IMG/VR virus record: IMGVR_UViG_2561511241_000003
DNA length: 37,150 nt
From: a virus
Taxonomy: Duplodnaviria; Heunggongvirae; Uroviricota; Caudoviricetes
Reading direction: 5' to 3' (one strand)
Part shown: one piece after another, positions 13,950-16,935 of the stretch
Numbering within the stretch: the first letter of the stretch is position 1
How the letters are laid out: every line of letters starts with the position of its first letter
Position numbers and translations under genes: made by a program
The notes under the pieces: model-generated
What the model was told of the DNA's origin: nothing
Seen by the model: the letters and a program-made list of their open reading frames with translations, nothing else
Database searches by the model: none

Positions 13950-14527
13950 TGCGGTCCTCCTGTCGAATCGCTGCCACCTTTAACGCCACCGTGTTTATGC
14001 GTATGCACAGTGATGCCGTTTGAGGTGAAATTGCCGCCGCTGTGCGTGATATTGCCGCTCATCTTCCCCCCTTTTGTGACGTCAATCTCGGCTGTTTTCA
14101 GAAGGTTTGTGCACTCCACGACGGGCGTGTCCAGTTTCACGCTGACGGATGCCTGCAGGGTGGCCGTTTTCATGCCGCTGGCGCTCAGTGCGCCTGCGTC
14201 CGCGTCGTAGCGGAACACCGCGCCATCCGGCGCGCTGACCACGATTTCTTTCAGGCTTTTTCCGGGGGCCGGAATGTCATCGCTCCACAGGCTGCCAATT
14301 ATCATGGCTGTTTCCGGGTTGCCGCCGATGCAGGCAATTGCCACCTGTTCGCCTGGTGATGGCGGCAGCCACACGTTGAAGGCTCCCGCGCGCGTGGTGT
14401 TCCAGCGCAACCAGCCTGTTTCCAGTCCGCCGCTGAGGACCCGCACGCACCAGGATTTCTCATCAACTTCAGAGATGATCCCGGTGCGGATGATATTGCT
14501 CAGCAGTCTCATAAGTTCTGCGTTCAC
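13946..14527 (-). CDS. V: baseplate spike/hub protein V
   Basis: 193 aa, GTG start overlapping the S stop (GTGA). Position matches P2 gpV. Confidence 0.85.
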   Translation of the reverse strand: MNAELMRLLSNIIRTGIISEVDEKSWCVRVLSGGLETGWLRWNTTRAGAFNVWLPPSPGEQVAIACIGGNPETAMIIGSLWSDDIPAPGKSLKEIVVSAPDGAVFRYDADAGALSASGMKTATLQASVSVKLDTPVVECTNLLKTAEIDVTKGGKMSGNITHSGGNFTSNGITVHTHKHGGVKGGSDSTGGPQ

Positions 14528-14694
14528 TGTACTGCCTCCGCAATCCGGCCCAGCACCGTGTTATAAATCAGGCGCTCATCCGCCTGACTGATACCCAGCA
14601 GCTCACGTACCGGGTAATCGGTGAAAATACCCGGCGCAACCTGATCGCGTTCACCGAACTGATGAACGCGTGCAATACGTGCGGCCACGCCGCT

Positions 14695-14697
14695 GTA
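14695..14697. repeat. target-site duplication GTA (left copy)
   Basis: GTA immediately outside the left IS terminus and again at 16011-16013. Confidence 0.6.
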
Positions 14698-16010
14698 TGA
14701 ACCGCCCCGGGTTTCCTGGAGAGTGTTTTATCTGTGAACTCAGGCTGCCAGATCATTGTTTCCGATGGAAGCATAATAAGCTTTTTCTGCTTCTGCCGGA
14801 GGAGTATGGCCCAGCCTTCCCAGCAATCGTCGATTGTTATACCAGTCCACCCACGTTAGTGTGGCCAGTTCCACTTCTGCACGGTTTTTCCAGCTCTTAC
14901 GGTGTATTACCTCCGCTTTGTAAAGACCATTGATGCTCTCAGCCATCGCGTTGTCATACGAGTCGCCTGTACTCCCTGTTGATGCCAGTAATCCGGCTTC
15001 TTTTAGTCGCTCCGTATAGGCCAGTGACACATACTGAGAGCCTTTATCGCTGTGATGGATGGTGCCAGACGGACGACGGGCCCACAACGCCTGCTCCAGC
15101 GCATCCAGCACGAATGTCGTTTCCATAGACGATGAGACCCGCCACCCCACGATGTATCCGGCAAACACATCAATGATAAACGCCACATAGACGAAGCCCT
15201 GCCATGTGCTGACGTAAGTAAAATCAGCCACCCACAGCTGGTCAGGTCGTTCTGCCACGAACTGACGGTTTACGCGGTCGCCTGCGGCAACGGCTTTCCG
15301 GCTGATGGTCGTACGGACCTTTTTACCCCGGAGAACACCGGCAAGTCCCATAACCGCCATGAGACGTGCCACTGTACATCTGGCCACCCTGATTCCTTCC
15401 CGTAACAACTGACGCCAGACTTTACGCACACCGTACACCTGATGATTTTCATCGTATACGCGCTGTATCTCTCTCTTCAGCCAGTCGTCGTGCTGCGCAC
15501 GGGCACTGCGTTTATCCGGATGATGTCGCTGTTGCTGACAATGGTAATACGTTGACGGGGCAATATGCAGTTCGCTGCATACCGGTCCGACCCCGTACTG
15601 CTCACGCAGCTTATCCAGCAGTGGCATCATTTTTTTCCAGAGGCGGTCGAACTCCGCCTTCGCAAAATAAGCGGAAGCCTGGCGAAGGATATCGTTACTG
15701 CGGCGCAGTTCACGATTTTCACGTTCCAGCTCTTTCAGACGCTGACGTTCAGCGCTGGTGAGCCCACCATCACCGCCCCCGGTATCCCGCTCATGCTGGC
15801 GAACCCAGACACGCAGAGTCTCCGGCGTACAGCCAATCTTTGGGGCAATGGAACAAATTGCCGCCCACTGTGAGTCATATTCATCCTGACTTTCCAGAAC
15901 CATACGAATCGCCCGCTGACGGACTTCGGGGGAAAAACGAGTATTTTTAGTCATCCTGTTTACCTCTTTCTCAGGGAGTTTAGTCTTCCAGGATTTTCCG
16001 GGGCGGTTCA
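14698..16010 (-). mobile_element. IS3-family insertion sequence, IS629/IS1203/IS3411-like (~1.31 kb)
   Basis: Terminal inverted repeats start TGAACCGCCCCGG at both ends. The transposase N-terminus [15 protein letters not shown] matches the IS629 group as I recall it. Flanked by a 3-bp direct repeat GTA. Confidence 0.9.
14740..15954 (-). CDS. IS3-family transposase, OrfA and OrfB fused in a single frame (404 aa)
   Basis: One ORF spans the OrfA HTH/leucine-zipper region and the OrfB DDE domain. The join reads TGG AAA AAA ATG ATG CCA (7 A), so no frameshift is needed. Confidence 0.88.
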
Positions 16011-16013
16011 GTA
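16011..16013. repeat. target-site duplication GTA (right copy)
   Basis: GTA immediately outside the right IS terminus. 3-bp duplications are typical of the IS3 family. Confidence 0.6.
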
Positions 16014-16467
16014 ACCTACTGTCACACCGGAGGCATCCGCGCTGGCTTTCAGGTAACGGGCGGTGCGCAGTTTTACGAACATGGGGACGTGCTTTGTGCT
16101 GTCCTGGTTGATACGCCGGGTGCGTATTTCCAGAAAACGGTCGATGTCATCCCGGTAAAACGTGCGGATATTGTTTTTATCCTCATCCCATCCGGTAATA
16201 GTTCGCCCGTATTTCCCTGTGTCGTGATGCCAGTTTTTCAGCGTGCGTGTTTCGTTATTCCAGATAAAGCGAATGCGCTCCTGTATCCGGGTTACGCGGC
16301 GTCTGCGTGGTGTCCACGCGGTCCCGTCCGGCGCTTTCTGTGACCGGATACGCGCCTGCTGGGCGCGGCGTAAATCCTGTGCCAGCTTTCTGGCGATGTT
16401 ATTGATGGCCTGCTGATTCAGGCTGTCGCGGATGGCCTCAAAGGTTTCATCCACGCGTGTGAATGCC

Positions 16468-16935
16468 TTATCCATCGCTTTCACCCCACGTCACATCCTG
16501 GAATACATGCGACCAGTCGCCTTCGGAAGAGGGCAGGCGGGGTTTTGGCTCCGGCAGGTGTTCTGCCTGCGGTGTGCCCTGACTGCTGCGCGTGACGCGA
16601 ACGCGCTCCCGCAGGGGCAGTGTAAACAGGATGTCGGCGCTGTCATCGTCATTAATAACGGCAGAAAATTTGATGTCCTGATTACGCTCAGGGTTGAGCA
16701 ACAACTGCGGCTGATTCTCCGACAACCACGCCAGCAGCGGCAGCGTCAGGTCGTCCAGCTCCCCGGCGTAATCCATGACAAACATCACCATCTGATAGCG
16801 GTAAGCAAACGAGGGAGTTTCTCCGGTCGTTTCAATGTTGCCGCTCTCCACGAAAATGGTGAATTTTTCCGGGTTGGCCTGACACCATCGGCATGAACGG
16901 GTCATGGCTTCACGCAGGGAATCAGTTTTCAGCAT
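16468..16935 (-). CDS. R: tail completion protein R
   Basis: 155 aa starting MLKTDSLREAM, close to P2 gpR (MLKPDSLR...) as I recall. Lies directly upstream of S. Confidence 0.85.
   Translation of the reverse strand: MLKTDSLREAMTRSCRWCQANPEKFTIFVESGNIETTGETPSFAYRYQMVMFVMDYAGELDDLTLPLLAWLSENQPQLLLNPERNQDIKFSAVINDDDSADILFTLPLRERVRVTRSSQGTPQAEHLPEPKPRLPSSEGDWSHVFQDVTWGESDG

Follow-up and report, generated by a model that had tools for sequence, protein, structure and literature searches.

The window, a 37,150 bp stretch of DNA, is part of the genome of Escherichia coli UMNK88 (CP002729.1), a porcine enterotoxigenic E. coli (ETEC). Judged by its sequence, the prophage in the window is P88-like (Xuanwuvirus, P2-like). 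It has the gene order of phage P88 (KP063541.1; Xuanwuvirus, Peduoviridae), in which the tail sheath-to-U block is likewise oppositely oriented. An inversion of this block within the window was considered and rejected, as the P88 layout is identical and native to the phage group. The late genes follow the P2-type order of lysis genes, R, S, V, W, J, I and H, and the run from R to H is tightly packed, with an insertion sequence (IS) lying within it. Gene R, encoding the P2 GpR tail completion protein (16468..16935, minus strand; PF06891, E-value 6.7e-41), is directly upstream of S and overlaps its start. Gene V, the baseplate spike gene (13946..14527, minus strand; Phage_spike, Phage_base_V and Apex domains), is directly downstream, and inspection of the junction sequence showed that the S stop codon and the GTG start of V overlap. 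W (gp25) and J are found beyond V. The accessory island of the prophage is an IetA/IetS defence pair, whereas P88 carries different accessory genes at this place.

The IS occupies 14698..16010 on the minus strand, its transposase being codirectional with the interrupted late genes. It is an IS629/IS1203 element of the IS3 family, matching copies annotated as 'IS3-like element IS1203 family' over the full length with 99.8% identity, and is 1313 bp long compared to the canonical 1310 bp. Of 5,426 complete E. coli genomes, 4,249 contain matches to the element, at 31,046 places in total. The terminal inverted repeats, TGAACCGCCCCGG and CCGGGGCGGTTCA, are complementary at 13 of 13 positions with 1287 nt between the arms. 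The left repeat (IRL; 15998..16010, minus strand), whose 13 bp perfect part reads TGAACCGCCCCGG in the IS sense, is identical to the canonical one over these 13 bp, and the right repeat (IRR; 14698..14710, minus strand) is identical to that of the canonical element. These two arms form the only inverted repeat detected in 14500-16200, where by our estimate about 0.02 perfect 13 nt inverted repeats would be expected by chance in 1.7 kb. The element begins with 5'-TG and ends with CA-3', matching the IS629 termini. It is flanked by GTA on the IRL side (16011..16013) and on the IRR side (14695..14697). IS629 generates target duplications of 3-4 bp (PMC3271280). The coordinates stated in the earlier note all hold, those of the IS3-family, IS629-like element (14698-16010) to the base.

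A single ORF of 404 aa (14740..15954, minus strand) corresponds to the OrfAB transframe transposase and contains the domains HTH_Tnp_1 (E-value 1.9e-12), HTH_21 (5.6e-18), rve (DDE; 2.2e-27) and rve_3. The conceptual product of programmed frameshifting that is annotated for a canonical copy has an identical sequence. The ALIL pseudoknot (RF01497), an RNA element that stimulates frameshifting in the IS3 family, was predicted at 15556..15673 on the minus strand with 115.8 bits against a gathering score of 50 (E-value 7e-31). The element resembles IS629/IS1203/IS1203v, members of the IS3 group in E. coli and Shigella, in its termini, its approximately 99.8% identity over the full length, the ALIL pseudoknot, the DDE (rve) transposase, the 3 bp duplication and the preference for prophage targets. 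It may also share the arrangement of two overlapping ORFs, orfA and orfB, joined by -1 frameshifting at an A-run, although in the deposited sequence the two are already fused. The deposited copy is unlike the canonical element in its length, in the fusion of orfA to orfB and in two extra A's inside IRL, probably assembly errors.

The interrupted gene is S, which encodes gpS (tail completion/virion morphogenesis). Its 5' fragment lies at 16011..16484 on the minus strand and has 158 codons if translation starts with the GTG at 16484, or 155 if it starts with the ATG at 16475. As an ORF it extends over 16008-16484 (minus strand; 158 aa from the GTG start) and is closed by a TGA formed by the terminal bases of the IS (16008-16010). 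Relatives are annotated in RefSeq with an ATG start, equivalent to 16475 here, and counted from it the break follows residue 155. The 3' fragment (14524..14697, minus strand) consists of the duplicated Tyr codon and 56 codons in frame, with the stop at 14524-14526. The earlier note had put the break after about codon 157 with about 55 codons beyond, each within about one codon of the actual 158 and 56 counted from the GTG. Removal of the IS and one GTA in silico restored one unbroken ORF, whose product has 214 aa with the GTG start and 211 aa with the ATG start. The reconstructed S matched PF05069 (Phage_tail_S) with an E-value of 1e-27 and 97.3 bits against a cut-off of 24.3. The match runs from residue 122 to 203 (profile positions 60 to 144 of 148), so the break is inside the domain, and both S fragments carry the PF05069 tag in the assembly index. 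The 56 C-terminal residues that are lost belong to the region of the family (residues 132-203) that is conserved in the widest range of phages. Searches of the PDB for a solved structure gave no significant sequence match to S, the best E-value being 0.11 to an unrelated entry.

S resembles P2 gpS in family membership (PF05069) and in its position between R and V. P2 gpS is about 150 aa; the product here differs in having 211 aa, of which only the C-terminal part (approximately residues 122-203) matches the 148-position profile strongly. Full-length S of 211 aa is encoded by the isolated phages P88 and Xuanwuvirus P884B11 with 97-98% identity. The identity to P88 S is 98.1% over 211 aa, and the host background of both phages is K88 E. 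coli. That S homologues end naturally at the insertion point, the downstream 56 codons being another gene, was the refuting condition named in the earlier note and has practically no probability. No support for it was found, and it is refuted by the intact 211 aa S of ETEC4085, P88 and most of the approximately 1044 E. coli genomes with this region, as well as by the Pfam domain that spans the break.

A natural empty site was found in the porcine strain ETEC4085 (NZ_CP122634.1). There, 1784 of 1784 bases matched the reconstruction in one piece (100% identity), and an intact 211 aa 'phage virion morphogenesis protein' is annotated. The empty site contains a single GTA while both flanks of the IS carry one here, and the 3 bp duplication described in the earlier note is thus genuine. 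With this natural empty site, IS insertion in a gpS homologue with a 3 bp duplication is proven. The same junction, orientation and duplication were present in ETEC1749 and rl0044 as well as in at least four more NCBI assemblies, and the flanks there were identical or nearly identical. The S pieces are annotated in ETEC1749 and rl0044, the 5' piece as a pseudogene fragment and the 3' piece as 'missing N-terminus'. Isolates sharing the insertion come from Belgium and Switzerland. A public assembly collection lists the truncated S protein in 211 blocks.

The age of the insertion was judged from the flanks and the distribution, as a 3 bp duplication carries no dating power. The flanks are identical to the empty site and the insertion is therefore young in evolutionary terms. 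It is common to the Belgian and Swiss isolates, to at least four more assemblies and to the 211 indexed blocks, and so predates the spread of the porcine ETEC clone. The 'fairly recent' insertion of the earlier note holds on the evolutionary scale but not in the sense of a very recent event, as it is shared by many assemblies and is a lineage marker. The event is real but ordinary: many related strains share it, and public genomes already carry its annotation. It is rather unlikely that the empty site of ETEC4085 arose by precise excision of the IS through the IS-excision enhancer (IEE) and transposase, which would make the insertion older than it appears. In hosts that possess IEE, IS629 does excise precisely, and IEE is found among ETEC strains (bioRxiv 10.1101/2023.06.07.543989); such excision is scarless, so sequence alone cannot separate an excised from an ancestral empty site. 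Against this, ETEC4085 differs from all IS-bearing prophages by four private right-arm substitutions, which fits a sister lineage that never held the IS.

The element in UMNK88 differs from the IS in six other assemblies by five substitutions, clustered at 15178-15487, while the flanks of UMNK88 and its IS-bearing relatives differ at only 0-3 positions in approximately 25 kb. The closest whole prophage to the window is that of ETEC4085 with its empty site. Both observations would suit an independent acquisition by UMNK88 of a slightly different IS629 variant at the same GTA and in the same orientation, the target being a hot spot. This is very unlikely, as site, orientation and duplication are identical and the target specificity of IS629 is weak (PMC3271280). 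The five substitutions fall within 310 bp, as expected of gene conversion or of a consensus of mixed repeat copies, to which they are tentatively attributed. In addition, the state shared by the IS-bearing prophages at the four right-arm positions fits one IS-bearing clade.

Three extra A's distinguish the UMNK88 copy. Canonical copies have A6 at the slippery site (15630..15636, minus strand), where UMNK88 has A7. The additional A puts orfB in frame with orfA, fusing them into the single 404 aa ORF, and is an insertion relative to the ALIL pseudoknot model. The other two are in the left inverted repeat region, just inside the 13 bp of IRL, where TTTT replaces TTT at 15994-15997 and TT replaces T at 15986-15987. 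Against two canonical copies the three extra A's were accompanied by one substitution (14757), which is polymorphic between those two copies, and against the UMNF18 copy the three single-base insertions were the only differences. The two extra bases in IRL were absent from 6 of 6 other assemblies of the same insertion, and the A-run was A6 in all four that cover it. OrfA (108 aa) and orfB (295 aa) are separate in the two other assemblies covering both, and a fused ORF encoded directly in the DNA was found only in UMNK88. Matches of at least 99% to the slippery-site region, exact A7 included, were limited to 9 of 5638 matching records.

Further private changes were found outside the IS. Single-G insertions at 11008 and 11013 frameshift the tail-fibre gene H, and the truncated H protein was detected in UMNK88 alone. 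Where the window can be compared in all three relatives, the private changes outside the IS were one substitution against these two single-base insertions. Multi-copy repeat makes up 3.5% of the window and holds three of the five private insertions. Every other assembly of the same insertion lacks the extra A's at the positions that it covers. On these comparisons they are most likely not biology but assembly errors, made in a multi-copy repeat of UMNK88.

If the extra A's were real private mutations, OrfAB would be produced constitutively without frameshifting, the left inverted repeat would be altered and the element would be a stationary donor of transposase in trans. The deposited sequence does encode exactly the OrfAB transframe product. 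A7 variants of IS629 also occur sporadically in other complete genomes, the copy in ECO_1_S being annotated as an uninterrupted 404 aa CDS, and high OrfAB levels raise IS629 excision (bioRxiv 10.1101/2023.06.07.543989). Such an origin is nevertheless quite unlikely. All independent assemblies covering these positions show the canonical sequence, and three single-base insertions of the same type in a multi-copy repeat, without a pattern of private substitutions, are typical of assembly error, as are the two private G insertions in H. The A7 copies elsewhere are at unrelated loci, and some of the genomes have many annotated frameshifts. As inherited variants these copies were rejected, since the three examined were at unrelated loci and two were not clean fusions. 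Were the mutations real, an immobilised IS629 inside a dead prophage could drive transposition of the other IS629 copies of the genome and, with IEE, also their excision. As a warning, the fused transposase and the frameshifted tail-fibre gene occur in just one older assembly and should be verified against the reads before any biological interpretation.

Taken as a whole, it is very probable that IS629/IS1203 inserted into S of a P88-like prophage in a single ancestral event with loss of gpS, and that the extra A's are artefactual. One copy of the element entered the late gene S by ordinary IS3-family transposition and duplicated GTA. S is cut within the Phage_tail_S domain, at residue 155 of 211, and the IS end gives an immediate stop codon there. 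The insertion probably occurred once, in an ancestor of a porcine ETEC clone that has since inherited it, and functional gpS would not be made. The IS may also lower the expression of the baseplate and tail-fibre genes downstream, because it lies in the packed R-S-V-W-J-I-H run and no recognisable promoter was found before V. The exact Ogr-type dyad TGT-N12-ACA had five matches in the window compared to a chance mean of 8.9, none near S or V, and a one-mismatch scan found none in 14500-14697. The motif TTTGTTGT, common to both divergent late intergenic regions of the phage, was absent near S and V, and scans for sigma-70 promoters and terminators were at chance level. On the Ogr-type dyad, TTTGTTGT and sigma-70 scans, the idea that V has a late promoter of its own within the 3' part of S was rejected. 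Polarity on V-G would follow solely from this absence of a recognisable late-promoter motif.

In P2, gpS is essential for the assembly of infectious particles, as shown by amber mutants. For this reason, and because the intact relative P88 is mitomycin-inducible and plaque-forming (PMC5285337), it is reasonable to expect that the UMNK88 prophage, unlike P88 with its intact S, is defective for tail completion. Alone it would be unable to form infectious particles, while the lysogeny genes and the IetAS defence pair would be untouched, and this accessory island may still be expressed, as the earlier note proposed. ETEC1749 and rl0044 have a second S-like region elsewhere in the genome (two places per record), and in strains such as these S could be supplied in trans by a second P2-like prophage. 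IS629 excises precisely when transposase and IEE are present (bioRxiv 10.1101/2023.06.07.543989), and in principle the S lesion would be reversible by such excision, with possible rescue of the prophage.

The insertion is similar to those of IS629 in prophage genes of O157:H7, such as IS1203v in stx2, in that the same element inactivates a prophage gene and that precise excision dependent on transposase and IEE would likewise make it reversible. In O157, 62% of IS629 copies lie in prophages or prophage-like elements (PMC3271280). The present case differs in being in porcine ETEC and in affecting a P2-like tail-completion gene, not a toxin or lambdoid-phage gene. Temperate phages '99% similar to a UMNK88 prophage' have been described (PMC11267873); the text and supplements of that paper do not say which UMNK88 prophage is meant. 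The significance of the insertion beyond annotation is small. A P88-type P2-like prophage is probably locked into a successful porcine ETEC clone with its IetAS anti-phage genes retained, and the junction between IS and S is a handy marker of the clone for PCR or k-mer searches.

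Gene S of the prophage, a homologue of the P2 tail completion gene, is interrupted by an IS629/IS1203 copy inserted with a 3-bp target duplication. The only inverted repeat in 14500-16200 was a perfect 13-nt pair, TGAACCGCCCCGG and CCGGGGCGGTTCA, at 14698-14710 and 15998-16010. Each end is bordered by GTA, at 14695-14697 and 16011-16013. This confirmed the IS3-family element, termini and GTA repeats described in the earlier note. The 1,313-bp element matched copies annotated as 'IS3-like element IS1203 family' at 99.8% over its full length, and 31,046 matching places were found in 4,249 of 5,426 complete E. 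coli genomes. Its coding sequence carries HTH_Tnp_1, HTH_21 and rve (DDE) domains, and the frameshift pseudoknot ALIL (RF01497) was located at 15556-15673 on the minus strand (115.8 bits). IS629 is reported to generate 3-4 bp duplications and to prefer prophages, which hold 62% of its O157 copies (PMC3271280); the duplication and target seen here agree with both traits. The element is IS629/IS1203 of the IS3 family, and every defining feature tested was present except separate ORFs, which are fused in the assembly of E. coli UMNK88, the porcine host strain.

On the minus strand R (16468-16935; P2_Phage_GpR, E 6.7e-41) is followed by the 5' fragment of S (16011-16484), the IS, the 3' fragment of S (14524-14697), the spike gene V (13946-14527), W and J. 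Immediately after the duplicated Tyr codon comes a TGA contributed by the IS end, and S', the truncated product, therefore has no IS-encoded extension. In silico removal of the IS and one GTA gave a single uninterrupted ORF, which encodes 214 aa if translation starts at GTG and 211 aa if it starts at the ATG used by RefSeq in relatives; the 3' part of S is thus in frame as proposed. The reconstructed protein matched Phage_tail_S (PF05069, E 1e-27), and the break falls within this domain, at residue 155 of 211. Homologues in related phages run past the insertion point, with 98.1% (P88) and 97.2% (Xuanwuvirus P884B11) identity across all 211 residues in isolated phages. Residues 132-203, largely the part removed, are the best-conserved stretch among more distant phages. 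A natural end of S at the insertion point was ruled out by these full-length homologues, the domain spanning the break and the conservation of the removed part. The interrupted gene is gpS of a P2-like phage.

Complete E. coli genomes were searched with a 1,784-bp reconstruction of the uninterrupted site. The empty site sought in other isolates was found in ETEC4085 (NZ_CP122634.1, pig, Belgium), which matched the reconstruction at 100% in a single piece. This locus is a natural empty site with one GTA only, annotated with an intact 211-aa 'phage virion morphogenesis protein'. In ETEC1749 (Belgium) and rl0044 (Switzerland) the site is occupied by this insertion, with identical junctions and orientation. 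They were the only 2 of the 5,426 complete genomes with the IS-S junction, and RefSeq annotates two S pseudogene fragments flanking an 'IS3 family transposase' in both. The exact 158-aa S' was indexed in 211 blocks of a larger assembly collection, and the IS lay directly downstream in 5 of 5 places among the matches listed. The insertion had been called fairly recent; given the 211 blocks, it marks a widespread clone and is neither private nor very recent. A single insertion in an ancestor of the clone is proposed, since the IS-bearing prophages do not differ in site, orientation or duplication and have a common state at four positions of the right arm that sets them apart from ETEC4085. The account in the earlier note is correct and well described, and the event is ordinary. 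IS629/IS1203, gpS of P2-like phages and insertional inactivation of prophage genes are all of well-described kinds, and public RefSeq genomes already include annotation of this insertion.

Canonical copies are 1,310 bp long, and the IS in UMNK88 exceeds them by three A's (IS sense). One makes the slippery site (15630-15636) A7 rather than A6 and fuses orfA and orfB into one 404-aa ORF. The others are at 15994-15997 and 15986-15987, just inside the 13-bp terminal repeat of the left end (IRL). The only potentially novel element would be a natural OrfAB fusion with an altered IRL, which if real would be a constitutive-transposase allele. The fused ORF does equal the normal transframe OrfAB product, but all other assemblies of the insertion covering these positions lack the extra A's. 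The IRL insertions were missing in six of six independent assemblies (ETEC1749, rl0044 and the NCBI assemblies L009, L011, L012 and L013). The run was A6 in all four assemblies reaching it, and orfA (108 aa) and orfB (295 aa) were separate wherever both were covered. A7 copies elsewhere were rare (best match of at least 99% in 9 of 5638 records); three inspected were at unrelated loci and only one of them was annotated as a clean single CDS. Five substitutions between UMNK88 and the six assemblies fell close together, within a 310-bp stretch of the IS (15178-15487), and the L009 flanks were identical to UMNK88 over the 3.7 kb compared. Where the window could be compared with all three relatives, the private changes of UMNK88 outside the IS amounted to one substitution, at 23240, and two insertions of a single base. 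Two extra G's private to UMNK88, at 11008 and 11013 (5 bp apart), shift the reading frame of the tail-fibre gene H (10971-12101, minus strand). The H product is 376 aa in UMNK88, the only genome in which the truncated form was found, and 499 aa in ETEC4085. These G's are either a second prophage lesion or another assembly error. Three of the five private insertions fell within a multi-copy repeat forming 3.5% of the window (P ~4e-4, binomial estimate). Together with the G's in H this pattern is that of assembly error and argues against a real fusion, which is unlikely; it is probably an assembly artefact. The extra A's are most likely homopolymer or repeat-consensus errors of an older assembly.

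In P2, gpS is essential for tail completion. Because of this, loss of gpS would leave the prophage unable to complete virions by itself. R/S and S/V overlap and no late-promoter motif was found before V, so polarity on V-W-J-I-H-G is also possible. A second S-like region is present in the ETEC1749 and rl0044 genomes, and a second P2-like prophage could thus supply S in trans. Precise excision of the IS, dependent on transposase and IEE, would be another rescue route; such IS629 excision is described, and IEE is present in ETEC (bioRxiv 10.1101/2023.06.07.543989). Phage P88 shares the gene layout of the window, including the tail sheath-to-U block, which is encoded on the other strand from S, V, W and J. 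Mitomycin C treatment of an E. coli K88 strain induced P88, which forms plaques (PMC5285337); phages of this type are therefore viable when intact. The accessory genes are an IetA/IetS anti-phage defence pair, IetS (S8 peptidase, 25193-27418, E 6.7e-52) and IetA (AAA ATPase, 27442-28563, E 1e-77), both on the minus strand. The pair sits between the portal gene and the replication gene, with the IS on the other side of the head genes, and no reason was seen to expect an effect of the IS on it. P88 has other genes at this position.

The fused transposase ORF, S' and the shortened H product were all traced to E. coli UMNK88 (CP002729.1). The window spans a YafO-type toxin gene to an integrase gene and is ~99.97% identical to the ETEC4085 prophage outside the IS. 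Only the part of the window right of ~10818, a point within H and close to the crossover site, is matched by the ETEC1749 and rl0044 prophages. In place of the left arm of the window (1-10818) these have, at 1-16920 of their loci, another tail module, of P2/186 type and with the opposite strand layout. This module adjoins ybjL, while the ETEC4085 prophage, which matches the left arm of the window, abuts the serS side. The pattern resembles the outcome of recombination between two P2-like prophages, perhaps with a chromosomal inversion as well. The invertible tail-fibre region (8567-11056) comprises an invertase gene (8567-9175, minus strand) and crossover-site inverted repeats at 9229-9246 and 11039-11056. 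At 14839-15348 of its prophage locus ETEC4085 has a ~487-bp cassette flanked by two direct repeats of the 23-bp site TAAAAACGTTGGTTTGGGAGAAG. The cassette is missing from the window, which suggests that one alternative fibre tip was deleted by a site-specific or repeat-mediated event. A G-run at 17076-17081, in the ORF at 17073-17624 (minus strand), is polymorphic in length. The DUF2570 (Rz-like spanin) gene is intact in the window and rl0044, while ETEC1749 and ETEC4085 have one G fewer in its run and the gene is annotated as truncated. At the left end, the gene at 1-381 (minus strand) bears the annotation YafO-family type II toxin in ETEC4085 and adjoins an unannotated 212-aa ORF (381-1019, minus strand). 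Neither had a PADLOC match; the two may be toxin-antitoxin cargo at the prophage end. In all three relatives a small early-region gene, at ~33045-33249 (minus strand) of the window, carries the annotation 'frameshifted' (for example at 37828-38032 in the ETEC4085 locus). No differences from the relatives were seen there in the whole-window comparison, so the window has the same frameshifted state.
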